DNA of 64,000 bases from a virus (IMGVR_UViG_3300025759_000090:852-64851), one strand, 5' to 3'; counted from the stretch's first letter, positions 543 through 60,500 are shown. Translations and numbers: made by a program. The notes: generated from the letters alone by a model not told the origin.

Positions 543-771
543 TATTGAAGAGAATCAACTAGAAAGTTTCAGACGTCGAATGTTAGAACCGCCATTCGTA
601 TGTCCTGTTTGTGAAAAAAAACCTGCTTGTATTACAACAACTTTGACATCAACAACTTACGATGTTTCTAGTGGATGGATAGATGTTGCAGACCAAATTG
701 ATTGGAGAAGTTGTATGGATTGTTTTCGGGAAATGAAATCCGACAAAAACTCCGTGTTGAACTCAACATGA
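526..771 (+). CDS. small CxxC zinc-finger protein carrying an in-frame 19-aa segment copied from the tail protein
   Basis: CPVC...CMDC motifs; nt 641-697 are a permuted copy of 27896-27952. The start may be ATG 535 (GGTGA upstream). Confidence 0.65.
   Translation: MKKMSDIEENQLESFRRRMLEPPFVCPVCEKKPACITTTLTSTTYDVSSGWIDVADQIDWRSCMDCFREMKSDKNSVLNST
641..697 (+). repeat. 57-bp circularly permuted exact copy of 27896-27952
   Basis: 641-669 = 27924-27952 and 670-697 = 27896-27923, base for base. Confidence 0.95.
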
Positions 772-879
772 AAAACGCCATTTTTTGAAATATTGCTCAG
801 TTTATATAGTCTTGAGTTCATATGGTTAATCGGCTCGGAAACAGGCGGAATAAAAAACCCCAATACAATCCGAATATTC

Positions 880-1155
880 ATGGTCGAAGTATCTTATTTG
901 CTGGTCGAAGCAGAAGAGGGTCGAGAACTACATCTCGCAACAGATAATTTAGGGAATCGAAAAGTCGTTATGAGAATGCAGAATACAGGAATGGAAATTA
1001 CTTATTTCAAAGACTTGTTTTCTTCATTGGGATTCGATGTTTATTTTCAGAATGTCAGATTGTTGAATCCAACAGATGATGTCAAGAAATGGAATGTGGA
1101 TTACAATGCAGTTTCAGATTATAATGCTAGAAGAATTACATTAATGAATCCTTAA
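880..1155 (+). CDS. hypothetical protein
   Basis: ATG 880 within ORF 793..1155, preceded by an AAAAAACC promoter-like motif at the same spacing as at structural genes. Confidence 0.6.
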   Translation: MVEVSYLLVEAEEGRELHLATDNLGNRKVVMRMQNTGMEITYFKDLFSSLGFDVYFQNVRLLNPTDDVKKWNVDYNAVSDYNARRITLMNP

Positions 1156-1181
1156 TATAGGTGGGAGAATCAGTCATAGAT

Positions 1182-1268
1182 TACTCAACGCAATAATACC
1201 ACGTATTATGGGGGTAGGGGGCGTTGGGTAGGTTTGTGTTATTTCCTTTTTTCATCCCCCTACTCCCA
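1182..1268 (+). ncRNA. candidate structured ncRNA or cis-element (nested hairpin plus pseudoknot-like pairing)
   Basis: Starts exactly where the GGTGGG motif at 1160 predicts a transcript start. Stems: 1182-1191/1221-1230, 1193-1199/1203-1209 and 1209-1221/1256-1268. There is no ATG at the predicted start. Confidence 0.5.
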
Positions 1269-1311
1269 CCAATCATCTTAGACATTAACCAGCGTTTTCT
1301 CTTTCATATTT

Positions 1312-1683
1312 ATGAGCGAACAGCATGGTTCAGATTTGGTTCTTCAAGTGTTTGCATTCTTCACAGTAATTCTATTAACATCAGTTTCTATGATGCCCCC
1401 TTTACCAGCAAGAATAGTTCCGTTTTGGGAAGAAGATTCCTGTATGTGGTTTGATGGTGAAATCGTTTCTAAGCGAATCGAGAATGAAGGATTAATAACA
1501 GCCGATTATATTTTGGGGGTTGATGGAACTTTGGACAATTTTACAGACATACAAATGGAAGTGCATTCTGATGTTTTCGTCTATGAGATTTTACCAATTG
1601 GTGCATACTACAATGGAACTGTTTGTGATACCGTTCCTTTACGTCAGGCTGTAATAGATGGAGTCATTATATTCATCTCTTGA
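1312..1683 (+). CDS. membrane-anchored hypothetical protein
   Basis: N-terminal hydrophobic helix (LVLQVFAFFTVILLTSVSMM); promoter motif at 1283. Confidence 0.65.
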   Translation: MSEQHGSDLVLQVFAFFTVILLTSVSMMPPLPARIVPFWEEDSCMWFDGEIVSKRIENEGLITADYILGVDGTLDNFTDIQMEVHSDVFVYEILPIGAYYNGTVCDTVPLRQAVIDGVIIFIS

Positions 1684-1853: not shown

Positions 1854-2006
1854 GGATGCTGTTGATGTCAACATTCATTCTGATGTCAACAATCCCACCC
1901 TTCCAACTTTTTGACGATGTTTGGTCAGAAGCATATTCATTGTCAGAAATGTATTCATTAATATAGGTGGGATTTTCTAACGTAAATTACACAGGAGATG
2001 TGAACA

Positions 2007-2477: not shown

Positions 2478-2486
2478 GTGATTGGG

Positions 2487-2930: not shown

Positions 2931-5078
2931 ATGATAACAGAAAACACACTAAATGACCCAAAAAGTAGGATTAAGCCAGCAGAATTTGATTATGACTTAA
3001 CTCCGATTCAAAGATATAATCGAATAAGAATGAAATTACAATCAGAAGGACTTGTATTGAAACAAGAGAGATTTTCCGGTGAAGAACAACATCTTGCTTT
3101 GATTCAATGTGAGGACATAAGCCACATACCAATTGCATACAGCCCTCATGGTGGTCAAGTTCGTGCTTCGGTTGATGGTCGCAAACCTCTTTACAATATA
3201 CCCGTTGATTGGTGGGGCAAAAAAATTATTTTGAAATATTATGCAGGTGAAGATATGGTTGAATTAGTCATGAGTGGAGATAGACAATCATACAAAGTTC
3301 TCAAGCCGAGAAGTTGGAATGTTTCAGCCAAAGCCGAAGTTGGAATCTATGGAGAAGAAAACATGGGTAATGGATATGAAACAAGAAATCTGATTTGTGG
3401 ATTTGCAGATGGTTCTTCTCCTGAAACTATTCATATTCCATTGGATTATAGAAGTCGTGCTGGTTACATCGGGCAAAGATATGACTGTCTAAGAAAGTCT
3501 ATACTTGTTCAAAGAAAAACTGATTCAAATGGAGAATATTACTATGTTTGTGAGGATGGTATTTTGTTCCATTCTATTGCTGATACAAAAGTAGTTTCAG
3601 GTGGTCAATATGATGAACATCCATGCAGACAATCTAGCCTGAATAACATTTTACCAAAGCCAGCAACTTTCAACATAACAACAATATCTAGCACTAAGCC
3701 TTCTGTTACAAAAGTCAAGCGTGGAAGTGCCAAAGCACCATATCTAAAACAACTATCTGCAAATTGGGATAAATCCCTAAAGGGTGCTGTTCTAGTGTCT
3801 TGTCAATGCTGTAAAGGTAAAGGTAGAACTAGGGCTAGTATTTACAACAAAGCAAGTGTTTGTGAATGGTGCAATGGAACAGGTCTAAGTTTCATCTCAG
3901 AAAAACAATTTTCAACATTGCCTGATTCTAAAAAGAATTCAGTTGTTGAAACCGATGTTGAAACTCGTCATTCTCATCCTGAGATTGCAGCACTTCAAGA
4001 TGCTTTAGATATGGGTACAGTTCCAAACAGAAGTATTAGTTTCGCTGAATCTTTAGTTAGTCAATTCTTAGCGAACGGAAAACTATCTTCTTCTCAGATG
4101 TATTATGTCAAGGAACTAAATACGCCTCAAGCAAGTCGTGGTGGAAATCCAAAAATTGATGCTCTAAAGAAAGTCCATGAAAGTCTTACAGGTCGAGACA
4201 AAAACTTCGCAATTGATTTGATTGGTTCATGGAATAAATATGGCCGTCTTTCTGACAAGCAAATGTATTGGGTTGGGGAATTAACCAAGAAAGGAATTGC
4301 GACTTCTCCTGACGTTACTAAAGTGCAAGATGGATGGGATGCAGTTGTTGAACTATTCAATCAGTTTGAAGGTTCAGAAAACGGCAAACCTTTGAAACAC
4401 CCAATCATCACTTTAGTTGTTGAGTCCAACACCAAAGAAGCACCAGCACCATGCGTTCCAAAATACGGAACAAAAGGTGTTGAAACTTTCAATTCATTTC
4501 AAAGAGAATTAGTAATTCGCCCACTAAACTTCTTTGACAAAAGAACAGGAACATCCGAATCAGCAGAATTACAGTTTACAGAAGCAGAAAGAGCATCTTC
4601 TCAGGATAGCCGTAGATTCATCCAAAATGGTGCAACCCTAGCAAGAGGTAATGTAAACCGTTTCAACGGCACTATGACACCTTCTATGGGGCTTCCTGAC
4701 GATACTTGGATAGTTCTTCAATCCCTTCGTGCAGACCCAATCGCAACTATCCGTAGATTAGGTCGAAAAAGTGGTTACTGTTGTTTCTGCAACAAGCACC
4801 TTTCAACAGATGTTTCAATGACTCATGGATATGGTGCAACCTGTGCTAAGAATGCAGGTCTGCCTTATGGTAAAAAATCAGCAGCATTGATTGAGAAAGA
4901 AATAGAGAATGAAGTAAGCCGAGTTGTTATGCAATTAGAAGGCGGTTCATGGGCTGTTGTATGCCTAGAAACTAACTCAGTCATTATGACTTTCGACAAC
5001 AAAGACCAAGCAGAAAATTGGTTGGATGAAGATACCAAAGTTGCCTTCCAAAACAAAGCAGGGGAATTAGTAGAATGA
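2931..5078 (+). CDS. large multi-domain protein with CxxCxGxG zinc knuckles and a C-terminal DUF6011-like zinc domain
   Basis: CQCCKGKG, CEWCNGTG, two FA.(S/D)L......G.LS..Q repeats, and CCFCNKHLSTDVSMTHGYGATC. Confidence 0.7.
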   Translation: MITENTLNDPKSRIKPAEFDYDLTPIQRYNRIRMKLQSEGLVLKQERFSGEEQHLALIQCEDISHIPIAYSPHGGQVRASVDGRKPLYNIPVDWWGKKIILKYYAGEDMVELVMSGDRQSYKVLKPRSWNVSAKAEVGIYGEENMGNGYETRNLICGFADGSSPETIHIPLDYRSRAGYIGQRYDCLRKSILVQRKTDSNGEYYYVCEDGILFHSIADTKVVSGGQYDEHPCRQSSLNNILPKPATFNITTISSTKPSVTKVKRGSAKAPYLKQLSANWDKSLKGAVLVSCQCCKGKGRTRASIYNKASVCEWCNGTGLSFISEKQFSTLPDSKKNSVVETDVETRHSHPEIAALQDALDMGTVPNRSISFAESLVSQFLANGKLSSSQMYYVKELNTPQASRGGNPKIDALKKVHESLTGRDKNFAIDLIGSWNKYGRLSDKQMYWVGELTKKGIATSPDVTKVQDGWDAVVELFNQFEGSENGKPLKHPIITLVVESNTKEAPAPCVPKYGTKGVETFNSFQRELVIRPLNFFDKRTGTSESAELQFTEAERASSQDSRRFIQNGATLARGNVNRFNGTMTPSMGLPDDTWIVLQSLRADPIATIRRLGRKSGYCCFCNKHLSTDVSMTHGYGATCAKNAGLPYGKKSAALIEKEIENEVSRVVMQLEGGSWAVVCLETNSVIMTFDNKDQAENWLDEDTKVAFQNKAGELVE

Positions 5079-5293: not shown

Positions 5294-5391
5294 ATCCGTC
5301 ATCTACATTTTACAATTCACAAAAATATTTTCTCTGACATCTCAGATATACCTGTTGACATCAACAGTAATTAACCGTAATTTCTCCTTCG

Positions 5392-5682: not shown

Positions 5683-5959
5683 GATTCAATTTGCATAGTT
5701 CATATACTGTTGAGTTCAACATGGTCGAAAAAGCACTCAACATCTTTTTTTCAGATTTTTACAAATCTAAATATTCTGTATTTCTGACTATTTTTTTCTA
5801 AATTTGATTTATTCTGCAACCTGCTAGGGGTCAAAACCCTTATTTTCCGATATTTGCCTATTTAGAGCCAATCTGACGGCCTCTTTTGTGTTTTAGGACT
5901 CTACCTACCAGCGACCCCAAAAAACGGTCAGAAACGCTTCTATTGATATTTGTAAGATT

Positions 5960-7477
5960 TTAGTCTCCAAACACGCCAATTTGGGGCATTCCACTATCTT
6001 CATCGAATCCAATTGCTAGTCTTGCATACAATAAAGCATGAAATGCGTGGTCATCTCCATCTCTACCAAATTTAGTTTTATTTTGAGCATGAGTTGGTCG
6101 CATATTTTGTTCATCTTGTTCTGCTGATGAATTCAAAGAAGTCCATTCGTGTAAAACCCATTCCAAATCTGTTGTTTTGTATGGTAGAGAAATTTCTTTA
6201 TTTTTGATTGCTTCAATTGTTGATTCGATGTAAGTTGTTCTATCTACAACAGCCATGTAAATTAGGTTTCTATTGTTGTCTCTTTTCTTGTATTGAAATG
6301 GAGTCAATGGCCGACTAGAATAATAACACGATTTTACCATATCTCCGTACTCTCTTTGGAGTTCTTTTACCTGTCTTGCCCCATACCCTATATCGCATAC
6401 AACTTGTACGCAATTATAGCGTTCTATGAGATTCTTAATTTCTTCAACTTCATCGTTTTGATAGTCAGCCCTTGAATCTAATTTTAGAGCATTTACAATT
6501 TCACCATTTTTTCTCATAATCACAACTGTTGTTTGATTTCCCCAATCAACACCCATCACAGTTTCTTCCGGTGCATCTACAAATCTCAAAATCTTCCTGT
6601 TGGTGTCAACAGCCTTCAATGCTTCATCAAAAGTCAACGGTTTTGTCGAACCAGCGAAAAATTCTCCAAGAACTTCATTCGCATATCTTCTTGGAGTGTA
6701 AGTTGCTTTTTTCATTTTGATATCTTCATCAGTAATTTCAGGATGCATCTTTTGACTGATATGATATCCGATAATTCCTTCTTCTGAATTTCCATGAATC
6801 CATTCTTCTCCGTTCCATTCTCCTTTGGTAGTTTTCTCCCATAATTTCCAAAAGTCTGAACCCTGTTCTCTAGCAGTTCCACTAACAAGAACCCACTTGT
6901 ATTCTGATAGTGCTAACATCTCAACCAACATAGGTAAAACATCTGCACCCGAATCCTGATATTCGTCAATACATACCATGTCTGCTTCGATACCCAATAG
7001 ACCATGTGCATCACCCCAATTTGAGTAAGCATATAGGTGATTCAAAGACCTTGCACCAACATCAAAAGTTTGGTGGCTAACTGACTGTTTGATTCTTGGT
7101 TTCATCAGGCATCCACCATTGATAGATGACATCAAAGCACCATTGAATCTTTCATCAACAAATCTACTAACTTGTGGTTGTCTTGGTGCTGTGTAAACTG
7201 CATTGAAATATGGTATGTTCAGAAGGCCATACATTAGTAGATTACAGATGGTTTCAGTTTTCTCAACTTTTCTACTACATTTGAGAACAACCATTTTTGT
7301 TTTTGAAGATTTATTGCTTGGTTGAAAATGCCGATAGACATCTATCAAATATGGTCTTTCGTGAAGGCTAAATGGCTGACCATTTATTGTTCTAAAATAC
7401 TGACTCCATCTATCAGGATAAATTGCGATTTCTCTTGCTTGTGTTGCTGTTAATTTAGCAGTAATACTATCGCTCAC
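5960..7477 (-). CDS. terL: terminase large subunit
   Basis: Walker A variant KCSRKVEKTE, Walker B CIDEYQD, SGT coupling motif, nuclease GVDWG and DHAFHALLYA. Confidence 0.85.
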   Translation of the reverse strand: MSDSITAKLTATQAREIAIYPDRWSQYFRTINGQPFSLHERPYLIDVYRHFQPSNKSSKTKMVVLKCSRKVEKTETICNLLMYGLLNIPYFNAVYTAPRQPQVSRFVDERFNGALMSSINGGCLMKPRIKQSVSHQTFDVGARSLNHLYAYSNWGDAHGLLGIEADMVCIDEYQDSGADVLPMLVEMLALSEYKWVLVSGTAREQGSDFWKLWEKTTKGEWNGEEWIHGNSEEGIIGYHISQKMHPEITDEDIKMKKATYTPRRYANEVLGEFFAGSTKPLTFDEALKAVDTNRKILRFVDAPEETVMGVDWGNQTTVVIMRKNGEIVNALKLDSRADYQNDEVEEIKNLIERYNCVQVVCDIGYGARQVKELQREYGDMVKSCYYSSRPLTPFQYKKRDNNRNLIYMAVVDRTTYIESTIEAIKNKEISLPYKTTDLEWVLHEWTSLNSSAEQDEQNMRPTHAQNKTKFGRDGDDHAFHALLYARLAIGFDEDSGMPQIGVFGD

Positions 7478-8476: not shown

Positions 8477-8806
8477 ATGCAAATATATGGAGTAGATTTA
8501 GAATTATGGATTGCTGTTTTAGCAGCAGTTCTTGGACTGACAGTATGGGGATTGAAAAAGTATCAGAAAATTATGGCTGATGGTAAAGTAAGTCTTGACG
8601 AAGTAATTGAAACTTTAACAGAAAGTGAAAGTAAGATTGATGATGTTGTAGATGCAGTTGAAGATTTAACTGCTGCTATGGATGCTAAAAAGAAAGCAGA
8701 ATTAGTAGAACTGTGCAAAGAAAAAGGACTCCCAACATCAGGAACAAAAGCAGATTTGATATCACGCCTTTCTGAGTCTGTTGAAGCCAACACCGAAGAA
8801 GAGTGA
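8477..8806 (+). CDS. TM-anchored SAP-domain protein
   Basis: N-terminal TM helix; KKAELVELCKEKGLPTSGTKADLISRL fits the SAP consensus. Confidence 0.75.
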   Translation: MQIYGVDLELWIAVLAAVLGLTVWGLKKYQKIMADGKVSLDEVIETLTESESKIDDVVDAVEDLTAAMDAKKKAELVELCKEKGLPTSGTKADLISRLSESVEANTEEE

Positions 8807-9181: not shown

Positions 9182-11605
9182 ATGGCCGAGCGTCAGCGAA
9201 GTATCATTGACAGGCTTTTGAGAAGAAGGGCTGACCCTTCTGATACTCAAAAGATGTCAGATTTAATCAATGGTAATATGGGAAATGATGGAGTTTCTTG
9301 GGATGGAAAAACTCTTGCATCCCTGTCAAAAATAGGATTAGCAACAACTGCTGGCCGTCAATCTGCATCAGGTGCAGATACACAAGTTTCATACAATCTT
9401 CTCAGACAAATTTCTCTTAAATCGGAAGTCGTAAATGCAATCTTGAGAAGATGTGTTGATGATACTCTTGCGAATGGATATGAATTTGTTTTAGCAGATG
9501 GAAAAGATGAGGGAAGTCAAGAACAATTAGACAAGTTGCGAAAGTTCTTCAAAAACCCAAATCCTGACGATATGGGAGATGAATGGTTAGAGTCTCTTCT
9601 GTTCGATTTAATCCTCTTCGGGGATGCCTATTTAGAACTCGATGGAAGTGCCGACAAATCATCTGCAAATGGTGAAAATTGGTCATATGGTGGAGACTTG
9701 TTGGCTGTGTGGACTATTCCATCAGAAACCATGAAACTCGTTCCAGCAAATCAAACTCCAAAGCCACCAAAAATGGCGTACATTCAAACGATTGACAAAG
9801 TGGTTAGAAAGTTCGATGCAAATAAGGTAATTCACATTGCTAAGTTTAAGCAAGGTAGAGGATATGGTTCAAGTCCATTAATTCCTTTAATGGAGATAAT
9901 AGCAGGTCAATTAAATCTATCAAATTATTTGAATATGCTTTACACAGGAACTTTACCAAAAACCATTCTAAATGTTGGAGATATTTCTAACAGCGAAATG
10001 AAATCTATGTTAGGTCTTATCGAGCAACAATTATCAGGTGGAAAATCACCATTTGGACTTATCGCAATCAACGGTGGAACAGGATTCAATATGCACCGAT
10101 TAATTGATTCAACAAGAGAAGGGGCACAGTTAGATTTGTTGTATTATTACCGTGAAGAAATCTGTGCTGTTTTTGGTATTCCACCAATGAAACTTGGCTG
10201 GGTTCAGACAGGTAAATTAGCAAATCCTGAGCAACAACTTGATGCTTGGTATGATGTTATCGAATCTTATCATGCGAGGATATCTTCTATGATGAATAAT
10301 CGAATACTTCCATTGCTTGGAATTACAGATTGGAAATTCAAGTTTGTAACTATCAGACCTTCAAGAGAAACAGAAAGAGCCGAGACATTGAAAGCACAGG
10401 CATCTGCTGTGGCAACATTAAGACAAGAAGCAGCAATTACAATCAATGAAGCAAGAGAAATGTTAGGTTTCCCTGTAATCAAAAATGAACAAGCAGATGA
10501 CCCATTTTTCATTAGTCCAAAACTTTCAATCAACACTCCAAAAAATGCTGATGCAGAATCCAATACAGATTCAGAATCAGATGTTGGTTTAGATGATTTA
10601 TTTCCAAATCCAATGGAACAAGAAGATGAAGAAGAAATTGGTGATATGCCTAAGTTTTCTGAGCCTGAAACTGAAATAACATATTCAACAGAAGAACTTC
10701 AAAACATGAAAAAAAAAGTTGATGATGCAAGTCGAAATCAATATGATAGAATTATCAGAACAACTACAAGAGAAACAGAAAAAAAACTTCTGAAAAATCA
10801 GGAAGAATTTGCTGACAGATTAATTGACAAATATTCTGAGAGAATAAATCCGACAGATGTTTTTGAATACAGTCTTGGAAACGTGTTGAACCCAACATCT
10901 GATTTTGACGGTGTTCTGACAAAAGCAGTTGGTGGAGATGACTTAGTTTGGATGGTTGATTTACTCGATAGAGAATTACAAGAATTACTTGACAAACAAA
11001 CTATTTCAACATCAACTGCACTTACAGTTGGTTTTGATGAAACTCTTGCTACAATGGCATCTGCATCAGGTGTTGGAATATCTTTTGATTTTAGAGATGC
11101 AGAAGCAATGAGATATTGGAATGCAAGGTGGAGAGTTCCAGCATTGAGAAACACTCTTGGGGCATTCAGAAAAGAAATATTTACAGTCTTTGAATCAGCA
11201 CTTGCAGATAGTAAAAATTGGCAATGGGTTCAAAGAGAAATGAGAAAAGTAATTGACCCATCAGGAAAAGCATTCCCAAGATATTATTACAACAGAATTG
11301 CTAGAACAGAAACAAGAAGAGTTGTTGAAAACTCACATCTTTCAGGATTGAAAAAATTAGGATTTTCACAAGTCCAAAGATTAGTAACTGTTGATTCTGT
11401 AACAGACCGAGATTTGTGTATTCCTTTTGAGAATGCTGTATATCCAATTGACAAATCAGGTGGGGTAATTCCAGCCCATCCAAATTGTCGCTGCACATTT
11501 ACCCCATACGAAGCATCTGACGAAATTAATCCAATAGAACCTGTGGCTGATTCACAGATTTTGAAACCTGATGTTGAGGGTGCTGAGATACTAGATTTGG
11601 AGTGA
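9182..11605 (+). CDS. portal protein fused to a Mu gpF / SPP1 gp7-like head morphogenesis domain
   Basis: Portal motifs PNP, GDAY, YGSSP, ICAVFGIPP and TINEARE; C-terminal RIARTE...PAHPNCRC. Confidence 0.88.
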   Translation: MAERQRSIIDRLLRRRADPSDTQKMSDLINGNMGNDGVSWDGKTLASLSKIGLATTAGRQSASGADTQVSYNLLRQISLKSEVVNAILRRCVDDTLANGYEFVLADGKDEGSQEQLDKLRKFFKNPNPDDMGDEWLESLLFDLILFGDAYLELDGSADKSSANGENWSYGGDLLAVWTIPSETMKLVPANQTPKPPKMAYIQTIDKVVRKFDANKVIHIAKFKQGRGYGSSPLIPLMEIIAGQLNLSNYLNMLYTGTLPKTILNVGDISNSEMKSMLGLIEQQLSGGKSPFGLIAINGGTGFNMHRLIDSTREGAQLDLLYYYREEICAVFGIPPMKLGWVQTGKLANPEQQLDAWYDVIESYHARISSMMNNRILPLLGITDWKFKFVTIRPSRETERAETLKAQASAVATLRQEAAITINEAREMLGFPVIKNEQADDPFFISPKLSINTPKNADAESNTDSESDVGLDDLFPNPMEQEDEEEIGDMPKFSEPETEITYSTEELQNMKKKVDDASRNQYDRIIRTTTRETEKKLLKNQEEFADRLIDKYSERINPTDVFEYSLGNVLNPTSDFDGVLTKAVGGDDLVWMVDLLDRELQELLDKQTISTSTALTVGFDETLATMASASGVGISFDFRDAEAMRYWNARWRVPALRNTLGAFRKEIFTVFESALADSKNWQWVQREMRKVIDPSGKAFPRYYYNRIARTETRRVVENSHLSGLKKLGFSQVQRLVTVDSVTDRDLCIPFENAVYPIDKSGGVIPAHPNCRCTFTPYEASDEINPIEPVADSQILKPDVEGAEILDLE

Positions 11606-32870: not shown

Positions 32871-32895
32871 AACTTTGATGTTGGCCTCAACACGT

Positions 32896-40877: not shown

Positions 40878-41009
40878 ATTTCTCGATTTTTTCCTCAGTT
40901 TTTTTCAAACATTCCATGTTGAAGCCAACATCTGAATTGATTCAAGCCGAAAAACTATGAATTCACAAAATGACTTCATTTATATCGGTGGGCTAACCAA
41001 TGAAAAATT

Positions 41010-44684: not shown

Positions 44685-45710
44685 ATGTGGTCTGAAAAGT
44701 ATCGCCCAAATAATCTCGATGATATTGTTGGTCAGGAACATATCGTGAAAAGACTCAGGTATGTAGTTGAGAAATTACATGAGAATGGTGATGATGCTGC
44801 ATTCCCTCATATGATGTTTTCAGGCAAGGCTGGAACAGGAAAAACATCAGTTGCAGTAGCCCTGATGAAATCTATGTTTGGTGAAGATTGGAAGGCCAAT
44901 TTTATCGAGTTAAATGCAAGTGATGAGAGAAGCATCAATGTCATCAGAACTACGGTCAAAGACTTCGCTAGAAGAGGGACAATTGGAACATATCAAACTA
45001 AGGATGGAAAAGATTTGTTGATTCCATTCAATGTTGTATTTCTCGATGAGTGTGATAATCTCACTTCTGATGCTCAAGCAGCATTGAGAAGAATCATGGA
45101 AAAATATTCCAAGCAAACTAGATTCATTTTATCCTGTAATTATCCTCACAAAGTTATAGCACCAATCAGGGATAGATGTGCTTTCTCAGGTTCAAGGTTC
45201 AAGCCTATCCCATCTGATGCTATTTGCAGGGCTTTAGAGGCCGTTGTAGAGCAAGAACGTCTCGATATAGCACCGAATGCACTAGAGGCCGTAGGAATGG
45301 CTGCAAATGGCTCTATGAGAAGTGCATTAAATTTGCTTTTTTCTGTTACTCGCATTCCAATCCGAGTAGAAATTGAAGATGTCAATGAAATTACAAACGA
45401 AATATCTCAGAAATCGCTTCGACAAATGCTAGGATTGGCTGTTGAATCCAACAAATTAGGTGTTGAAGATTCAAAATATGTCAAGATTCACCAGCGATTA
45501 GATTCTATGGTCGAGAATTTGGGTGAAAAAGGTATGAGTGGAGTCGAAATTTTAGATGCATTTTTGATGACTGTTGAAGAAGATTCCAATGTTCCAAACA
45601 AACTGAGAAAATCAATCTACAAAAGTATGGGCGAAGCAATATATTGGTGTTCAATTTCATCTGACGATTTACTAACCGTCAAGACATTTCTAAGGAGAAT
45701 AACTGTATGA
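44685..45710 (+). CDS. rfcS: replication factor C small subunit (clamp loader)
   Basis: [38 protein letters not shown] and RFILSCNY. Confidence 0.93.
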
Positions 45711-45934
45711 GTGAAATTGAAGAAAAAGTAATAGAAAAAATACGACAAAGAGCCGAGTTAGGTTTGAACAAATATAACACAACAATGGAACGTACAGATT
45801 TGACTTTGAAAGAATGGATAAATCATGCTATGGAAGAGGCTATGGATTTGTCAGTTTATCTTCAACGGATTCTGATGATGTTGGAATCTCAAGATGTTGA
45901 AACCAACACGGAGTTTTTGGAAGAATCCGAGTGA
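45707..45934 (+). CDS. conserved phage protein, possible all-alpha NTP pyrophosphatase-like
   Basis: GLNKY...[12 protein letters not shown] motif. Confidence 0.55.
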
Positions 45935-51255: not shown

Positions 51256-51329
51256 GGAATAAATTGGAGATTACAAAATAAAAATTAAGGATGTGATATC
51301 AAGGAAAAAATAACAGACGAAAAAAACTT

Positions 51330-51361
51330 GGGGGGCAACTTCGGTTGTCTCCCTTTTTTTT
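51330..51361 (+). terminator. intrinsic terminator (TTCG loop)
   Basis: GGGGGGCAAC-TTCG-GTTGTCTCCC followed by T8. Confidence 0.85.
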
Positions 51362-51596
51362 ATTTTCAATATCGGATTTTTTTCTCAAATTTTTTCTGAT
51401 GTGATTTAGAATATTAGATGTTGACCTCAACATATGCCGATAGAGCGATTCTAAGGCCACGTTTTGATATCGGTGGTAATCTGAGTCCTGTTAATCGAAC
51501 AAATGGCTCAGATTGCTTCTATTGGTATCAGAATAGTCAGATTCGTAAATGCTTCTGACTACGATATTGATAAAGGTGGGAATATCAGGCTTTGAT

Positions 51597-51788: not shown

Positions 51789-52624
51789 TTGGAATAAAAT
51801 CAATCTATCAACCAATGAAATCTTTGTTAGATAATTGGTCAATGAAAAACAAATCTAACATGAACACGATAATCATTCATGGAGAATCAGGAGTTGGAAA
51901 AACAACTCTATCAAAATCATATTCAACAAACTCAGGTTTTGAACCCCAATTCATATCAGACTTGAATGGTAAATATCCTTTCTCAAAAGTAACAGCATTA
52001 AGTCTTTCAGGACTACCAAGAATAGCAATTGTTGATGATGCTGATTCTCTATCAAAAAAACATTGGAAAATAGTATCAGATTTTTCAAATCAAAAATTAT
52101 CTCCAATGATAATCATCGTCATCAATCTGAAATCTGTTCCGTTCAATCTCAGGAAGATTAGTTTACTTGTTGAAGTCAACAGACCTTCTAAGGAAAATCT
52201 GTTCGATTTTTTGAAATCCAAATCAACGGATTTTGATGATGAACATCTGAAATATATTGCTGAGATATCTCCAACTTGGAGAAGTGCTGGACTCAATCTC
52301 CTGACATCTCCAAATGGATTTAGATGTGAAGAAGAAATTAGAACAAAAGATTTGTTTGGTGTCGAAGAGAACCAAGCAATATTATCAGGAAAATATCATG
52401 GAAATAGAATGAATAATCATCCTTCAAGTTTGATTCAAATGGCTGAATATAATCATGTAAATACAGATGATTTAATCACAGGAATAAAGATGCATTCTGA
52501 ATCTTGGAATTATGCTGGATTATCTAGGGTTTTGAAGAACTATTTGTTGACCCTAAGAACGGCTCACAGCAAGCCTGTTCCATTCAGGAAGAATGCTAGG
52601 TTTGGTAAAGGTGGTAAAGTCTGA
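51785..52624 (+). CDS. AAA+ ATPase, RFC large-subunit-like
   Basis: HGESGVGKT, IVDDAD, PMIII and WRSAGLNL (sensor-2-like). Confidence 0.65.
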   Translation: MIGIKSIYQPMKSLLDNWSMKNKSNMNTIIIHGESGVGKTTLSKSYSTNSGFEPQFISDLNGKYPFSKVTALSLSGLPRIAIVDDADSLSKKHWKIVSDFSNQKLSPMIIIVINLKSVPFNLRKISLLVEVNRPSKENLFDFLKSKSTDFDDEHLKYIAEISPTWRSAGLNLLTSPNGFRCEEEIRTKDLFGVEENQAILSGKYHGNRMNNHPSSLIQMAEYNHVNTDDLITGIKMHSESWNYAGLSRVLKNYLLTLRTAHSKPVPFRKNARFGKGGKV

Positions 52625-52680
52625 CTAAAACAATCCACCACATAGAACTGCTTATTAGTGGAAACTAACCCCGTAGGGAT

Positions 52681-54855
52681 ATGCAAAGCACAGCCGAAGC
52701 CACAAGATTGTCAAGAAACAAAGTGAAAGAAGCCCGATTCCATAGAGTCTCGAAGGTCATGTCAGGAGAATTAACAGGGTTTGGTTCTAAGGTCGAGAGA
52801 GTAGTAATTGACCCACATGGCAAAGCCTGTACCAATGGAAAAATAATTTGGATTCCTGAGTCAATGCACGACAATCCAATTTACAATCAAATCATGCAAG
52901 AAGCAATCTTAGCACATGCGAATGCTCATCACAGATATACAGATTTCGTAGCATGGAATCGCAAGGTGGTCAAGCCGACTCAGAAATATGCTTGCGACCC
53001 ACTACTACACAAGTTTGTAAATATGCTAGAAGATGCTAGAATCAATCACCTATTCGGTCAGGATTGGAAGGGTAGTAAAAAGAGGATGCAATTTACTCAC
53101 GAAGTTTTCATGCAAAGACACAAAGAAAACACAACTGATGATTCACCTTTGAAAGAGCAAGCAATGGTTGCTATGATGACCGAAGCAATTGTTCACGAAC
53201 CACATTGGTTTACAACACCCGAAGTTGTTGACTTCATGGATGCTAATAGAGCATTACTAAACAATGCAATCAAGCAAAGACATACATCTGCTGTGATAGA
53301 CCAAGCAAAGAGATTAATCAAAGCGTTTAGAGAAGCATTCCCTGACGAAGATGACCCATCCACAGGAATGTCATCAGATGACCTATCTCAACAACAAGTC
53401 GAGGAAGCATCAGAACAACAAGAGTCTCAAGGTCGCAATCCTGAACAAGTCAGTTCTAACAGATTCAAGGACATGAAAGAAGCAGAAAAAGCAGAACCAA
53501 AAGAAGAGAAGAAATCAGAAGATTCAGATTCAAATTCAGATTCAGATTCCACACTTGGAGATTCAGAATCAGAAGGTTCAGATTCAGATTCAGAAGGTGC
53601 TGGTAGTGATGGAGAAGATTCAGATGAAGAATCAGATTCAGAAGGTGCTGGTGGAGAAGGTGGAGAAGATTCAGATTCAGATGGAGATTCAGACTCAGAA
53701 CCAATGACAGGAGATGCAGATTCAGAAGGTGCTGAAACTGATGGAGATGGAGATGGAGAAGATTCAGATGGAGATGTAGATGGAGATTCAGATTCAGATG
53801 ATGGTGGTCGAGGCGGAGTTGGTGAAACAGGTACGTTTGAAGAGGCTTGGGCTGACTTACTTGACTCAGTTGATAGTGATGTAGCCGAGATAGAAGAAAC
53901 GGCCTTAGATTTGGATAATGGGATAGAAACATCTGCAACAAAACAAATAGTGAAAGATGTTACAGAAATCAAAGGTAAAACCGTTGAAGAAGATTCTTAC
54001 AGCATGGTTACAGAATGTGGTCATAAAATAGAAGTTGTCGCTACTGCTAAAGACTTTAGAAATAGAGAAAATAAAATCATGCGTCATGCAAGCACATACA
54101 ACCGTGTAGCAACACAACAAAAGAGAGTAATCAAGAGGATTACTAACGAGATGAAAAGAAGATTGAAAGGTCAAGACCCATCATGGGAAACAGAACAAAA
54201 AAGTGGTCGTCTAAATCCACGAAGGGCATACAAATTAGGTAATGCTAAAGTCCACAAGATTGACAAAGTTTACAGAAAGAAAACCACACCTAAAGATGTT
54301 ACAGGAAATGCTATCATTCTAATTGACGCATCAGGCTCAATGAGAAGTGGTAGTCGAGCATCAGATGCTTCTAATGCAGCAGTTGTTTTCTCAGAAGTTT
54401 TCCGCAACATCGGAATGAACTACGAAGTTGTTGACTTCAACACCCATTATGGAACAACCATGAGAGTCAGAAAATCCTTCGCAAGTGCTGGAACTTCAAC
54501 TCTTGACAAAGCGTGTATTGCTGCACCATTTACAGGTTCAGCAAATGCAGATGGATATGCTGTTCAATGGTGCTTAGATAGACTTGCTACAATGAATGGT
54601 AGTCGCCTTCTCATTGTTATCTCAGATGGTCAACCAGCAGGTGCTTCGCCATCAGGCTTGACTGACGAAGAACATTTGATTCAAGTAACAGAAAATGCAA
54701 ACAAGAAAATCGGTCTGCTTGGTATTGGAATCGCTGGTCAAGATACATCTCAATTTTACCCTAACGCTATTACTATCACAGACGAGTCTCAGATAGCAAG
54801 AGAAGCCATGACGGTGCTTCGCCCTATGTTGAAGCGTATCGTGCCTAGAGCATAG
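52681..54855 (+). CDS. CobT/NorD-like vWA-domain protein with D/S/E/G-rich linker
   Basis: MIDAS motif LIDASGSM, VISDGQP, NMLEDARI and SGRLN; likely partner of the MoxR ATPase. Confidence 0.88.
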   Translation: MQSTAEATRLSRNKVKEARFHRVSKVMSGELTGFGSKVERVVIDPHGKACTNGKIIWIPESMHDNPIYNQIMQEAILAHANAHHRYTDFVAWNRKVVKPTQKYACDPLLHKFVNMLEDARINHLFGQDWKGSKKRMQFTHEVFMQRHKENTTDDSPLKEQAMVAMMTEAIVHEPHWFTTPEVVDFMDANRALLNNAIKQRHTSAVIDQAKRLIKAFREAFPDEDDPSTGMSSDDLSQQQVEEASEQQESQGRNPEQVSSNRFKDMKEAEKAEPKEEKKSEDSDSNSDSDSTLGDSESEGSDSDSEGAGSDGEDSDEESDSEGAGGEGGEDSDSDGDSDSEPMTGDADSEGAETDGDGDGEDSDGDVDGDSDSDDGGRGGVGETGTFEEAWADLLDSVDSDVAEIEETALDLDNGIETSATKQIVKDVTEIKGKTVEEDSYSMVTECGHKIEVVATAKDFRNRENKIMRHASTYNRVATQQKRVIKRITNEMKRRLKGQDPSWETEQKSGRLNPRRAYKLGNAKVHKIDKVYRKKTTPKDVTGNAIILIDASGSMRSGSRASDASNAAVVFSEVFRNIGMNYEVVDFNTHYGTTMRVRKSFASAGTSTLDKACIAAPFTGSANADGYAVQWCLDRLATMNGSRLLIVISDGQPAGASPSGLTDEEHLIQVTENANKKIGLLGIGIAGQDTSQFYPNAITITDESQIAREAMTVLRPMLKRIVPRA

Positions 54856-54891
54856 GTCTGAGGGTCAGGAAACGGTAAAGGAGATATTGAT

Positions 54892-56079
54892 ATGAGAAGG
54901 GCAATAGAAACAGATTACGATTACAAACATTGGGTTGGGGAAACTTTTCTTGATAAGCGGGAATTATTATTTTTTCAAGATAGTCGCAATAATGCAGAAT
55001 TACATACAACTCATCCTAAAAAATATTGGGCTGATTCAAGTTTGAATCCAAAAGTGCAATTCAAAGATAGTTCTATGATAAGTGAAATATGGGCGGAACT
55101 TGGAAGATATATGTCAGAAAAAGAAATCAAAACCTGTGCTGATTGGTTGCATTATATTAGCGGCATTTCATCAGTATCACCATGTATTCAAGATGGTCGA
55201 GTAAATGCTCATTCTTACTCAATCACAACCCCTGTTGAAAAAATCAAAATTGCTGTGCAAAGTGATAAGAATGATTTTGATGGTGAACAACCATATTTCA
55301 AAAGAAGTCTTTTGTCTTTCATGGTCTTGCATAATGATGGAAGAAATGTCATCCTTGCACCATTGTTAAATGGAACAACAAAGTTTCCATTTGAGAACAA
55401 CGTTGAGGAAGTTAATTATCCTCATGCAGAAGATGTTTTTGTATCTAAATTATGTTCCGCCAAATCAAAGAATCATGGATGGGTGAATGAATTATTTGTT
55501 GTGAATGTTGATTCAATTGAAGGTCAGCCTGAAAATAGTAAAGGTGGAAGTGTGTTTGATGACGAACTTAAGTTTGGAGATTTCATTCATTCTTCATGGC
55601 ATAATATAACTCAGTCAGGAACAATAGAAATTGGTGAAGCAATTCTTGGAGACAATCTAGTTTATGATTTCATTCCGAAAACCGATTTGTATGTTGGTGG
55701 AAATCTGATTGAGAAGATGTTGACGCTAACAAATGATAATTACAATATGTTTGCTATGCTAGATTTGATGAATGAATTGACACATCAATGTGAGAGAGTT
55801 ATTGATACACATACTGTTTCAACTACTACCAAAGTCAAAACTTCTAAGACTACATTTATTCCAACATGGAAGGATAACAGACCAAGCGAAACAATAGATT
55901 TGACCGATGGTGAATATGTGATGTATTCTGACATTTTCAGGTGTCCTGTATGCAATGTAAAGGTCAAGGTTATAGGTAAGGGTAGCAACCGGAAATCCCA
56001 AGCAGAATGCCCCCTGTGTAAAAAAGGGCAAATTGAGTTTCCACATTTAGTAAATAAAGAAGGAGTTGAAGAAGAATGA
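54892..56079 (+). CDS. hypothetical protein with C-terminal zinc ribbon
   Basis: GGAGA RBS; CPVC...CPLC. Confidence 0.7.
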   Translation: MRRAIETDYDYKHWVGETFLDKRELLFFQDSRNNAELHTTHPKKYWADSSLNPKVQFKDSSMISEIWAELGRYMSEKEIKTCADWLHYISGISSVSPCIQDGRVNAHSYSITTPVEKIKIAVQSDKNDFDGEQPYFKRSLLSFMVLHNDGRNVILAPLLNGTTKFPFENNVEEVNYPHAEDVFVSKLCSAKSKNHGWVNELFVVNVDSIEGQPENSKGGSVFDDELKFGDFIHSSWHNITQSGTIEIGEAILGDNLVYDFIPKTDLYVGGNLIEKMLTLTNDNYNMFAMLDLMNELTHQCERVIDTHTVSTTTKVKTSKTTFIPTWKDNRPSETIDLTDGEYVMYSDIFRCPVCNVKVKVIGKGSNRKSQAECPLCKKGQIEFPHLVNKEGVEEE

Positions 56080-56648
56080 GTAAGAGAATTACAAAGAGTT
56101 TGAGGCAAGCAATAGTTAGAGCAATATACACAGGGAATGAACAACATTCTCAACCAATGAGGCCAAGCGAAATTGTTGGATATATCAAGAATGATTCTAA
56201 GTTGCCAATTTCGATGAGGGGAAAAACAACAAAGCAAGTTGCTTACATTTTGAGTCAGTTAGCAAGAGATTATGATGATGTCATAGTTACAGAAGTCTTA
56301 GGAAGAAACGGAACTAATCATCATGGTAATGAAAGATTCACAAAAGCATTCTCAATCAAATCAGATTATACTTTGTCTGATGCTGAAAAAGCAATTGCTG
56401 TTCCACAAAAGAAAAGACAAAACAAACAACAGATTACAGTTATGCTTTCACGAAACTCAATTGAGTATATTCAGGAATGGAAGAAACTTGGAATGTCAGC
56501 AGGTCAAGTTGTTGAGAATCTAATTACAGCAGATAGAGAAATCAATGGTTTACCTTCTAAGCAAACTAAGAATTCATTTGTTGAATTTACTAATCCTTTG
56601 CAGATAAATGACAAACTTGCTGTTTCTGATACAAATAGAAACGAATAG
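56076..56648 (+). CDS. putative DNA-binding protein (wHTH-like N-terminus, RHH-like C-terminus)
   Basis: MRPSEI...TKQVAYILSQL; QITVMLSRNSIEYI...SAGQVVENLI. Confidence 0.55.
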   Translation: MSKRITKSLRQAIVRAIYTGNEQHSQPMRPSEIVGYIKNDSKLPISMRGKTTKQVAYILSQLARDYDDVIVTEVLGRNGTNHHGNERFTKAFSIKSDYTLSDAEKAIAVPQKKRQNKQQITVMLSRNSIEYIQEWKKLGMSAGQVVENLITADREINGLPSKQTKNSFVEFTNPLQINDKLAVSDTNRNE

Positions 56649-56827
56649 AGGCCATGAAATTATTCAGGGGTACAGTTTAACCTAAAATACAAACAAGTGG
56701 CTAGGATTGGCTCTATTGATACAAATATGACTAATATCGTTCTGACTGTTATCTGACCATATTCAAATCAATTTATTCACAACATATTCTGACAATCCTC
56801 AATAGCCGGAACACATCAGGGTTCATT

Positions 56828-57115
56828 GTGAGACAAATCGTATGGTCTGTTGATATGATGGATGGTCATGTTCTGATAGGACATGATGAATCAGGATTTG
56901 AGTTAGTTCAAGTCAGAACAGGTTCTTCACATTGGAAGTTTTCATTCTCAGGTTATGATGGTCATGGAAGAGTTAGAGTTGGTCATGGATGTAATTACAA
57001 TCCATTACTTTTGATTGAGGATATTTTTCAGAAAATTGAAAATGGAATTGAAACGCCTGTTGAACTCAACATGGATAATTTCGATAACTCCACATTTTCT
57101 GAGGAATGGAGTTGA
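56828..57115 (+). CDS. hypothetical protein
   Basis: CAATAGCCGG promoter motif 28 nt upstream of the GTG. Confidence 0.55.
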   Translation: MRQIVWSVDMMDGHVLIGHDESGFELVQVRTGSSHWKFSFSGYDGHGRVRVGHGCNYNPLLLIEDIFQKIENGIETPVELNMDNFDNSTFSEEWS

Positions 57116-57191
57116 ACGATTTGGATGGTGTTTGTTACGAAGGATTCAACAGATTTTGGAATTGGGTTGCTAAGAAAATTGGGTTGTTGAT

Positions 57192-57473
57192 TTGATGATA
57201 TCTTGGACTACAACAATTAGAGATGCAACATATCTTGTTGGCTTTGACAAAAATATGAAAGAGATAGGAAGTTTAGTTGAAATCGAAAACGAATGGATAA
57301 TGCATCTTGATGAAAAAACAATCAGGGTAAAAGGCAATGGATGCAAAGACCCATTGAGATTCATGGAATGTTTAGTTTCACCATTATCTAATGATTCAAA
57401 AAAAGAAAAACATCCGATAATTTTGGAGTTCATTCATCCTGATGGTGAATGTTGGGAAGTTTGGAATAATTAG
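57192..57473 (+). CDS. hypothetical protein
   Basis: 93-aa ORF in a + strand chain. Confidence 0.5.
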   Translation: MMISWTTTIRDATYLVGFDKNMKEIGSLVEIENEWIMHLDEKTIRVKGNGCKDPLRFMECLVSPLSNDSKKEKHPIILEFIHPDGECWEVWNN

Positions 57474-57523
57474 ATACAGCCAATAACCCCTTTCATGGCT
57501 GGTGTATATATTGGTGGTGGCGT

Positions 57524-60500
57524 ATGCCTAGAACAAATAATGAAAATCTTATTTCCGGCACACAAGCAGAACGAATATCTGTAACACTAGATGCTGAACA
57601 ATTAGTCAAAGATACAACTACACAAGCATTGTTCGTAGGTGATGGCTCTACTGTTGGCGGAAGGGCTGTTGATGTCCGACCCGTTTCAGATATTACAGGC
57701 AACTATACTTTGGTCAGGGCTGACGAAGGAAAGATTCTCAGATTCAATTCTGCATCTGCAATTACAATCACAATTCCAACAAATGCGAATGTCGGATATC
57801 CTGTCAGTTTGACACGAATCCCATTCATAAATTTGGGTGCTGGTATTGTTACTTTGGTTGCAGATACCGGAGTAACTTTAAATTCTATCGAACCCAATAT
57901 TAATTCTAAAGAAAGTGGAGAAATACACAAGACAGCAACTAACACTTGGTATCTATCAAAAGGTGGTGCAGGTGTAAGTCAATTAACAGAACTAACTGAT
58001 GTCAATATTACTAATCTTCTCAATACTCAAACCTTACAATATAATACCACATCAGGTAAGTGGGAAAACGTATCTTCAACTGATGCAAATACAACTTACG
58101 ATTTAGCAGTTCCAGCATCAACAACAAATCTCAGATTGACAGGTTCAGATGGCTCAACAGATAATATAACTTTGACAGGTGCAGGTGCAACTTCGATTGC
58201 TAGAACATCAGAAACAGAAATGACAATCACATCCACGAACACAACTTATGGGGTGTTGATACCAACAGGTACTACAAGTCTGAGATTGTCAGGTTCAGAT
58301 TCATCAACAGATGACATTTCAATTGTTGGTGGAACAAATACAACTGTTACAAGAACATCAGATTCGATTCTAACTTTAGCCTCGGATGATACTACTTATT
58401 CTCTAGGAACTTCATCTGCTGGAAGTAATGCAACAATTGATTTGATAGCAGGTGGTTCAGGTAGTGGAACAGACTCGGTAACATTGGCTGCTGGAAGCAA
58501 CATAACTATCTCAGAAACAGGAGATACAATCACCTTTGCTGGAACTGCTGGAACTGTTACAAGTGTATCGGGTTCAAGTCCTATTTCTGTATCATCAGGA
58601 ACATCAACCCCAACCATATCAATTTCTCAAGCAGATGCAAGCACGAATGGATTCCTGAGCAGTTCAGATTGGTCAGTATTCCAAAGCCGTTTATCCAGCG
58701 TTGGAATAACAAGCGGTGGTGGTCTATCTGTATCAGGAAGTCCACTAACAAGTAATGGTTCAATTACACTAACAAACACAGGAGTAACATCTAATGTTGC
58801 AGGTACAGGAATATCAGTCTCAGGTGGAACAGGTGCAGTTACAATTACTAACACCGATTTGGGTTCTTCTCAAAACATATTCAAGACCGTAGCAATTAGT
58901 GGTCAAGACAATATTGTAGCAGATAGTAATTCAGATACATTGACACTTGCAGAAGGTAGCAATATTACATTGACTACTAATGCTGGAACTGATACAATTA
59001 CAATCGCTGGAACTGATACAACTTATTCTGCTGGAACAGGATTAAATTTAGCCGGAACTACTTTCTCAAATACAGATTTGGGTTCGGCTCAGAACATATT
59101 CAAAACAATAGCAGTAAGTGGTCAGTCGGATATAGTCGCAGATAGCAATACAGACACGCTTACATTCGCTGCTGGGAGTAATGTGTCTATTACTACTACT
59201 GCGGGTACAGACACGCTTACAATCGCTTCTACGGACACAAACTATTCTGCTGGTTCAGGACTAGATTTGAATGGAACTACTTTCAGCGTTGATGTCTCAG
59301 ATTTCATGGCTAATGGAGTCAACAATAGAATCCTAACTGCATCGGGTGCAGATTCCATAAATGCTGAGTCAGGTTTGACTTTCGATGGCAGCACTTTGAA
59401 TGTTGGTGGAAGTGTAATAATTTCTTCTGACCTTACTGTGAATGGAACTACTACAACAATCAACACTCAGACTCTAAGTGTTGATGACCCAATGGTTGTT
59501 GTTGGAGATAACAATTCAGCGAATAGTGTTGACTTAGGAATCATAGGAAAATATGTTGACACCAACACATATTATTCAGGACTTCTACGAGATGCAAGTG
59601 CTGGCAAATTTAGATTATTCACAACAACTCAAGATTTGAGTTCGGCAACAACTGTTGACCCAACAAACGGTGGATATGCAAATGCAGATTTGATTGCTGG
59701 TGCAATACAACAATCGGGTGCAACAAATGGAATAGTATATGCAGATTCAAATGGCAACTTACTTGGTGGTAGAACAATATCAGAAGGAGTCGGTATTGAC
59801 ATCACAAATGGTAGTGCAGTTTCAGGTAATCCAACTATCTCTCTTGACTTATCTGAATTGACAACTTCAACATCAAATGCTGACGGTGATTTCTTTGTTG
59901 TCGTAGATACAGGAAATGCTCAGAAGAAATTAACGAAGGCTAACATCAATATTTCAGGATTCAATAATGATTCAGGATTCACAACAAATACAGGTACAGT
60001 TACATCAGTTGGGCTTGCAGGTGATAGTGGCTCAACAGCAATCACAACATCAGGTACATTCACGATTGCAGGTGGAACAAATGTAACAACAAGTTTGTCA
60101 GGTTCAACTCTTACAATTGCTGCAACAGATACTAACACAACTTATTCTGCTGGTGATGGTCTTGACCTTTCAGGAACGACATTCAGCACCGACCTAAAAT
60201 CTAATGGTGGTTTGGTAATTGAGTCAACAGAATTAGCAGTTGATTTAGGTGCATCTTCAATTACAGGAACACTAGCAATTTCAGATGGTGGAACAGGTGC
60301 AACATCTGCTGGTAATGCAAGAACAAATTTAGGTCTAGGTTCACTAGCAACTTTGTCATCTGTTGCATTCTCAAATATAGCACCAGCAGCAGTTCAATTG
60401 AGTAGCGAATCTTTCACAGATGTTGATACCACATTGATGACTTCTGCTGCTATCCAAGATAAGATATTATCATACGGATATACAACCAATACAGGAACAA

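Follow-up and report, generated by a model that had tools for sequence, protein, structure and literature searches.

The window analyzed here, a stretch of 64,000 nucleotides corresponding to bases 852 to 64851 of one 64,851-bp viral contig (IMGVR_UViG_3300025759_000090; full-length record, G000), carries a genome-wide array of the interrupted palindrome TGTTGRNNYCAACA. We propose that this array is probably a set of cognate double-stranded DNA (dsDNA) docking sites for one sequence-specific, two-fold symmetric (homodimeric) protein that coevolves with its sites. The proposal is drawn from a symmetric, invariant interrupted palindrome, selection at the DNA level, an even spread along the genome, and lineage-specific versions of the word; over-representation, arm conservation, even spacing, and these dialects likewise support, in outline, the site-specific genome-wide system that a preliminary description of this DNA had put forward. 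From the sequence, we infer that the virus is an uncultured marine archaeal tailed virus of magrovirus type, its host being assigned on the same grounds. Dispersed arrays of cognate sites are a known kind of system, and this one belongs to a virus group in which none has been described.

Pattern searching returned 33 exact TGTTGRNNYCAACA matches in the window and 34 in the whole 64.85-kb contig, the 34th copy lying at contig position 192, outside the window. Dinucleotide-preserving shuffles averaged 0.05 copies and never exceeded 1 (n = 100 shuffles), which makes the enrichment several-hundred-fold. All 30 starts listed in the preliminary description were recovered, and three copies (1061, 45440, and 58254) were added. 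In the word, whose half-site is TGTTGR, 10 positions are fully specified and 2 are two-fold degenerate. It is sharply defined: just 4 more copies have one mismatch (chance, 1.47 copies at up to one mismatch), and arm spacings other than N4 occur 0 to 4 times each. At two mismatches there are 31 copies, compared with ∼18 expected by chance at up to two mismatches, and these could represent sites in decay or newly arising ones. The “degenerate copy at 15532” that had been invoked to fill a 4.2-kb gap has two mismatches, is near chance level, and carries little weight. The final 4.4 kb of the window, within the distal part of the tail-fiber gene, contains no TGTTGRNNYCAACA copy. Bases flanking the copies are unconserved, so the word is a discrete 14-bp site and not a piece of a longer or mobile repeat; a mobile repeat of the miniature inverted-repeat transposable element (MITE) or repetitive extragenic palindrome (REP) type was rejected on these random flanks and on the presence of 27 of the 33 copies in genes.

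The internal symmetry of the site points to a dimeric reader. Purine at position 6 and pyrimidine at position 9 were present in 34 of 34 TGTTG-N4-CAACA occurrences, a symmetric rule by which TGTTGR is read on both strands, and in 14 of the 34 copies these positions are A..C, which cannot base-pair. A symmetric R/Y rule combined with an unpairable A..C fits a dimer on dsDNA better than a hairpin, and the two-fold symmetry bears out the earlier suggestion that fixed arms and a free center mark a dimeric protein's site. We therefore infer that the reader is a protein dimer. Each half-site, TGTTGR, would be contacted, the two central bases would be left free, and the arm centers would lie about 9 bp apart.

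The same palindrome could instead act as a hairpin in single-stranded nucleic acid, either as a lagging-strand priming or helicase-loading signal or as an RNA processing or stability stem-loop. The arms stay complementary in all of the dialect changes described below, a primase-polymerase, a clamp loader, and a family B DNA polymerase (PolB) are all virus encoded, and the ∼2-kb spacing resembles phage Okazaki-fragment lengths. However, within one genome the arms are invariant in sequence, beyond mere complementarity; the stem would be just 5 bp long, with 3 A-T pairs; and positions 6 and 9 obey their symmetric rule without pairing. Moreover, the asymmetric site center of the relative G003 occurs in both orientations with respect to the coding strand, 12 against 6, so that no single RNA loop is kept. 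A hairpin function is thus quite improbable in our judgment. An intrinsic terminator or RNA stem-loop was rejected on the 5-bp stem, the location of sites in genes, and the presence of both orientations.

Selection acts on the DNA rather than on the encoded peptide. Within open reading frames (ORFs) lie 27 of the 33 window copies, the other 6 being intergenic, and TGTTGRNNYCAACA is found in two reading frames, on both coding strands (one genic copy sits in the minus-strand terminase gene), and between genes. The peptides encoded are V-(E/D/G)-x-N at 21 or 22 copies and L-x-(S/P)-T at five or six. Compared with the 27 coding copies observed, 500 synonymous-codon shuffles that preserved every protein yielded 0.51 (maximum, 3), and codon-order shuffles yielded 0.03. 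The peptide V-[EDG]-x-N itself occurs 35 times versus 14.3 expected, and 22 of the 35 occurrences carry TGTTGRNNYCAACA, which indicates that the DNA signal has shaped the proteins. Conservation was assessed at 13 loci in nine related same-dialect records with 87 to 96% nucleotide identity. Both arms were intact in 92 of 92 site copies, and mismatch rates amounted to 1.5% for the twelve constrained positions, 7.6% for the central pair, 7.6% for the 14-bp flanks, and 8.2% for the remaining sequence. We conclude that the arms are under purifying selection at the DNA level, while the center evolves at the background rate. Codon-preserving shuffling had been proposed as a check in the preliminary description; its outcome, together with arm conservation in relatives and the ORF placement, upholds the claims made there that selection acts on the DNA and that sites are written into unrelated genes in two frames. 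Within genes, sites lean toward the last 40% (18/27, P = 0.0046), and they are enriched about three-fold between genes (6/33 versus a 6.5% noncoding fraction, P = 0.018).

A trivial explanation for such an array could be a neutral or selfish by-product, arising, in the way suggested for HIP1-type iterated palindromes, through gene conversion or biased repair, or else from selection on the peptide. HIP1-like words can become dense without a known reader, and the slight enrichment of two-mismatch copies noted above would suit this explanation. Yet protein-preserving shuffles yield only half a copy, the word occurs in two frames, on both coding strands, and in intergenic DNA, its spacing is more even than random, its positions persist through dialect changes, its arms are frozen while the free center drifts at the background rate, and sites are unlinked to recombination breakpoints. 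The by-product explanation is already disfavored and in our view very improbable. Sites as recombination or mosaic junctions were likewise rejected, since a site lay no more than 100 nt away from 7 of 69 homology breakpoints, where 7.2 were expected.

Gaps between sites in G000 have a coefficient of variation (CV) of 0.61, compared with 0.97 under random placement (P about 0.001). Gaps of 2 to 3 kb number 15 versus 4.8 expected, a count reached in 0 of 20,000 simulations, and the largest gap is 4.8 kb, compared with a random mean of 7.6 kb. No phase-locked period was detected, the best Rayleigh R of 0.39 lying inside the null, and strict periodicity was rejected. The quasi-regular spacing described earlier therefore stands as a spread more even than random, but not as a period. 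The complete relative G005, which uses a different word, has 38 sites with a CV of 0.62 (P = 0.0014) and is thus independently even; site counts in relatives range from 22 to 38 per genome.

Relatives, gathered through their portal, polymerase, helicase, vWA, and winged-helix–ribbon-helix-helix (wH-RHH) proteins, carry words of their own, all with 5-bp arms and a 4-bp gap (5-N4-5). The TGTTG dialect occurs in the closest relatives, and TGTCG occurs in L005, L006, L025, L029, L030, L098, L134, and L136, at ∼80 to 92% protein identity. Other dialects are (C)TATTG..CAATA(G), in G004 and many loci; TATYG..CRATA (TATYGRNNYCRATA), in G005, L051, L053, and L067; (A)TGTTC-YNNR-GAACA(T), in G003, with 27 copies; and TACTG, in L032 and L101. 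Changes of dialect always preserve arm complementarity. An exact-word scan of viral contigs added at least 116 new loci; among the matches listed, 114 have one copy and 2 have two, which is uninformative as to unrelated carriers of the array.

The arms have changed in place through the cheapest coding changes, namely, Val/Ile, Asn/Asp, and synonymous substitutions. In the TGTCG-type loci, a site of the other dialect lay at most 9 nt from the homologous codon for 3/5, 3/4, 4/6, 2/3, 3/4, and 1/4 mappable sites, and coinciding sites numbered 5/18 against G005, 3/18 against G004, and 1/17 against G003, where chance predicts about 0.01 per site. The terminase gene illustrates the series: GTT GAC ACC AAC (VDTN), GTC GAC ACC GAC (VDTD), ATT GAC GCC AAT (IDAN), and ATC GAC TCC GAT (IDSD). 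Site-poor G001 has unrelated codons at this position. The dialect series, the TGTTG dialect, and in-place conversion are new in the present analysis.

These dialects bear on who encodes the reader, which we think is probably the virus, a host protein being a lesser possibility. In the host scenario, a chromatin, replication-initiation, or segregation factor of the archaeal host would read the sites, the virus would carry copies of the host site so as to recruit or titrate this factor, and dialects would follow host lineages. The G+C content differs among dialect groups (0.38 for TGTTG, 0.44 to 0.47 for TGTCG, and 0.45 to 0.56 for the others), suggesting different hosts, and no viral reader turned up in the Pfam or PHROGs scans. 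The G003 site, (A)TGTTC-CACA-GAACA(T), loosely recalls what we take to be the pattern of archaeal origin-recognition boxes. The magrovirus replication genes listed in the available text of PMC5434244 include no origin-binding initiator. On the other side, dialects already differ between close relatives (79 to 92% protein identity), one arm position of the G005 site can be either T or C, a freedom that its relatives lack, and the dense array is missing from related lineages. Taken in full, the host scenario seems unlikely.

Candidate viral readers were sought in 60 ORFs with Pfam, in 10 with PHROGs, and in 3 with single-sequence PDB searches; PHROGs added no candidate, and the PDB searches yielded nothing useful. 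The binder named in the preliminary description, an RHH- or winged helix-turn-helix-like protein (56076-56648), is modeled with a mean predicted local distance difference test (pLDDT) score of 80.7 as an N-terminal winged helix and a C-terminal RHH, its fold matches to winged-helix proteins being weak (best E value, 0.03). Residues 105 to 170 are predicted to pair through an antiparallel strand centered on residue 121, with a pairing score of 0.48 versus 0.00 for the best control, runs agreeing on at least 92% of contacts, and a partner pLDDT of at least 67. When the tool was calibrated, 20 of 30 proteins with structures solved as pairs attained this mark, as did 1 of 23 with single-chain structures. 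Because RHH dimers are well represented among solved structures, the result may reflect no more than likeness. The proposed fold was thus supported by modeling, as a winged helix plus an RHH dimer, but the reader role was not, because the protein does not track dialects. Between TGTTG and TGTCG lineages the RHH strand is identical, and the recognition helix differs only at positions where another TGTTG locus, L132, agrees with the TGTCG lineage. In G003 the RHH is gone, that genome showing no second match, and the site center is still strongly constrained. That this protein is the reader appears improbable.

Several observations weigh against a virus-encoded docking system as proposed here. 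The recognition helix of 56076-56648 varies widely among genomes that share TATTG, and lineages with few or no sites retain the gene. Pfam on the 60 scanned ORFs found no ParB, helix-turn-helix (HTH) or classical repressor, methyltransferase, or integrase, and presence/absence comparison with site-poor G001 singled out no gene common to all site-rich genomes. Because G000 is a fragment, genes are missing; complete relatives are 78 to 83 kb long, and the last ORF of G000 runs off the contig. Evenness is significant in just two of four full genomes, the CVs of G003 and G004 (0.75 and 0.78) not being significant. Finally, some related lineages have a sparse array or none detectable, so the system would be dispensable or replaceable; the thin array of G001 consists of 10 TACG-N6-CGTA copies versus about 1.3 expected.

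Other candidates fared no better. For the two SAP proteins (8477 and 16945) suggested earlier, SAP domains were confirmed and a reader role was unsupported; to our knowledge, SAP is not a sequence-specific dimeric reader. A 118-aa winged-helix-like protein (40521-40877) was rejected because its putative recognition helix is invariant across TGTTG, TGTCG, TGTTC, TACTG, and TATTG genomes; it is a replication-module protein, a winged helix by eye, with 63 to 90% identity across the clade. Tandem 95-aa and 93-aa paralogues (56828-57115 and 57192-57473) were rejected as well: they seemed missing from G001 by blastp, and a profile found the family in G001, G002, and G006 to G008, with a match in every relative searched. 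They share a G-x-G-C ... P-L ... E motif and lie just upstream of the giant tail-fiber-like gene. A 395-aa protein (54892-56079) has a C-terminal region of ∼100 residues with a zinc ribbon conserved across the clade and a hypervariable N-terminal part that is 34% identical to that of the TGTCG lineage, where neighboring genes are 65 to 92% identical; a search of the ESM Atlas with it returned only noise (best score, 0.77). Outside the G000 fragment, a family of ∼190 to 220 aa (L084:8380-8952, L082:17910-18512, L092:15843-16439, L078:120-782, and L263) is conserved in all complete relatives and one TGTTG-lineage record. By eye it is small-terminase-like (N-terminal HTH, coiled coil), has no Pfam match, and is a lead only.

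The sites could also be targets of an enzyme that modifies or nicks DNA at intervals, as in the nicks of T5-like phages. An interrupted palindrome with degenerate R/Y positions resembles a type II recognition sequence, and the virus encodes PD-(D/E)XK and ERCC4 nucleases and an 88-aa ORF (17495-17761) that is HNH-like by eye. On the other hand, Pfam found no methyltransferase or restriction-type gene, restriction recognition sites are usually avoided rather than enriched, and symmetric nicking would give double-strand breaks. We hold an enzyme target to be a slim prospect. A restriction-modification or orphan methyltransferase target in particular was rejected, as no such gene was found in the Pfam scans and the word is enriched rather than depleted.

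Gene content agrees with the type of virus proposed. By Pfam, the structural genes include those for a portal, prohead protease, HK97-type capsid, minor-tail/tape-measure protein, and large terminase; nucleic acid genes encode an XPD-like helicase, a PD-(D/E)XK nuclease, an ERCC4-HhH nuclease, a primase-polymerase, and a clamp-loader-like AAA+ protein. Further matches are a GT4 glycosyltransferase, a family B polymerase, a MoxR-type AAA+ ATPase with a CobT-like vWA protein, and two SAP proteins. Such a repertoire agrees with the magrovirus and Poseidoniales virus descriptions in the available text of PMC5434244 and PMC11706807. The positions of all site copies are collected in Table 1.

Table 1. 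Copies of the palindrome in the window and the candidate binder. Every site copy is an exact TGTTGRNNYCAACA match.
Feature	Position	Strand	Context
Site copy	755..768		81-aa ORF 526-771
Site copy (added here)	1061..1074		ORF 793-1155
Site copy	1860..1873		Intergenic
Site copy	4418..4431		715-aa ORF 2931-5078 (weak DUF6011 match)
Site copy	5353..5366		Intergenic
Site copy	5708..5721		Intergenic
Site copy	6598..6611		Minus-strand large terminase-like gene 5960-7477; position retained in TGTCG, TATTG, TATYG relatives
Site copy	8779..8792		SAP-domain ORF 8477-8806
Site copy	10884..10897		Portal gene; TGTCG-type homologous site in L005, L006
Site copy	13546..13559		806-aa ORF with prohead protease domain; position retained in L005, L006, G003
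Site copy	17725..17738		88-aa ORF 17495-17761
Site copy	20179..20192		GT4 glycosyltransferase gene; position retained in L006
Site copy	22567..22580		Minor-tail/tape-measure-like gene 21813-24035
Site copy	27415..27428		1562-aa tail gene; position retained in L029, L030
Site copy	27541..27554		1562-aa tail gene
Site copy	30468..30481		385-aa ORF; position retained in L029, L030
Site copy	32879..32892		Intergenic, after helicase gene
Site copy	35527..35540		Conserved 673-aa ORF; position retained in L030, G004, G005
Site copy	38332..38345		400-aa ORF
Site copy	40917..40930		Intergenic
Site copy	42804..42817		Primase-polymerase-like gene; position retained in L025
Site copy	43339..43352		ERCC4/XPF-HhH nuclease gene; position retained in L025, G005
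Site copy	44008..44021		ERCC4/XPF-HhH nuclease gene
Site copy (added here)	45440..45453		Clamp-loader-like AAA+ gene
Site copy	45895..45908		75-aa ORF; position retained in L025
Site copy	47124..47137		Family B DNA polymerase; position retained in L025, G004, G005
Site copy	49287..49300		Family B DNA polymerase; position retained in G005
Site copy	51419..51432		Intergenic
Site copy	52168..52181		279-aa AAA+ (clamp-loader-like) gene
Site copy	54429..54442		CobT-like vWA gene
Site copy	57058..57071		95-aa ORF; position retained in L098
Site copy (added here)	58254..58267		>2159-aa tail-fiber-like gene
Last site copy	59554..59567		Tail-fiber-like gene
wH+RHH protein (predicted structure)	56076..56648	+	Candidate binder of the preliminary description

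Some further features of these viruses and records were observed. The 88-aa ORF at 17495-17761 has an HNH-endonuclease-like pattern by eye (CxxC ... HH ... CxNCH) and no Pfam match; its homologues occur in all four complete relatives (120 to 244 aa), and it belongs to the virion module. In G001 (L074-L078), a second palindrome, TATAAC-N6-GTTATA, has 12 copies (e.g., 14818, 43848, 46169, and 75202-82479), often after GGTGGGGGTA or CCCCTA; its copies are concentrated among consecutive small genes close to one end of the genome, and it looks promoter associated. Collagen-like repeat genes in G001 (L074, 4.5 to 10.5 kb), G004, and L097 yield many GGTCC/GGACC-N4 pseudo-palindromes, which overwhelm simple counts of palindromes and have nothing to do with the array. 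An RNA-library run, X24, gave 40 contigs over window positions 40000-59999, 32 of them at 99% identity or more, which fits transcription in nature without proving it; across contigs from four runs, 1,309 differences were counted in all. One 55.5-kb contig from these viruses (L103, matching the record behind L067 in length and coordinates) sits in a metagenome-assembled genome labeled Legionellales, probably through a binning error.

The nearest described system, by analogy, is the stoperator array of cluster A mycobacteriophages. According to the portions of PMC6550527 available to us, the L5 gp71-type repressor of these phages has 20 to 30 short sites in a genome of ∼50 kb, mostly away from promoters; the sites are 13 bp long, asymmetric, and oriented with transcription, and their consensus differs among heteroimmune relatives, tracking cognate repressor specificity. 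The array described here is alike in having tens of dispersed sites per viral genome (33 in 64 kb here and 22 to 38 in relatives, about one per 2 kb); its consensus also varies among relatives and may likewise track a reader. It differs in that its site is palindromic with a free center, G003 having asymmetric centers in both orientations, and in that the virus is archaeal. Stoperators lie mostly between genes, whereas 27 of 33 copies here are inside genes, where they reshape proteins. Nor were repressor, integrase, or partition genes found among the 60 ORFs by Pfam, a result that, for a fragment, does not prove their absence.

Dispersed palindromes read by dimers are also known from cells and plasmids. 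KorB-OB of plasmid RK2, Noc-NBS, and ParB-parS pair a dimeric protein with dispersed palindromes of 13 to 16 bp and act over distance. The site described here is likewise dispersed, palindromic, and of that size class, but Pfam scans found no ParB/Srx-domain protein among the 60 ORFs. In the MatP-matS system of enterobacteria, the RHH protein MatP reads matS, a palindrome of 13 bp whose 5-bp arms surround an R-N-Y center. The window similarly encodes a predicted wH+RHH dimer; however, matS is confined to one chromosomal macrodomain at low density, no Pfam MatP match was found here, and the wH+RHH protein does not track dialects. Archaeal origin-recognition boxes (ORB/Orc1), which are inverted and cluster about an A+T-rich unwinding element, were rejected, as the sites here are single and dispersed, there is no Orc1/Cdc6 match, and the 279-aa AAA+ protein scores as clamp-loader-like. 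The preliminary description knew of no such system in archaeal tailed viruses. Consistent with this, a literature search found no published description of such an array in magroviruses or Poseidoniales viruses, and the string “palindrom” is absent from the main texts of PMC5434244, PMC10160649, and PMC11706807, whose supplements could hold motif analyses.

If the sites are docking sites for a dimer, selection would keep one about every 2 kb along the chromosome, at whatever positions the encoded protein can accommodate V-(E/D/G)-x-N or L-x-(S/P)-T. Reader and sites would change together; relatives' dialects keep the same build and often the same codon. Even coverage together with indifference to promoters suggests action on the whole chromosome. 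The reader would then treat the genome as one physical body, which it might coat, silence, protect, or mark as “self,” and would not work on single promoters. A roadblock or silencing array of the stoperator or KorB kind is one possible role, and self-marking for replication, packaging, or nuclease protection is equally possible; coating, compaction, or anchoring is a more tentative suggestion, and some other role is rather improbable. The fast change of dialect among close relatives resembles, by analogy, pairs of cis-acting sites and trans-acting factors under exclusivity, as in immunity, incompatibility, or packaging specificity. Speculatively, then, the array may be a lineage-specific “barcode” in which a dimer encoded by the virus reads identity sites set at even intervals and gives license to its own chromosome alone, through replication by its own replisome, packaging, or protection from virus-encoded nucleases.

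A docking array of this kind would mean that a DNA signal overrides protein sequence in the polymerase, portal, terminase, and other core genes and has been retuned across a virus clade without moving its sites. It would offer a natural series for the co-change of a DNA-binding specificity and dozens of sites, and the dialect word provides a simple marker by which magrovirus contigs can be sorted into lineages. Were the barcode interpretation true, an in-place switch of dialect would give rise to incompatibility groups and drive magrovirus lineages to split, and the array would be a self/non-self system written in essential-gene coding sequence, with no described counterpart in archaeal viruses. 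A docking array would also point to an unrecognized genome-wide function in archaeal viruses that rank among the most abundant in the ocean and are not yet culturable.

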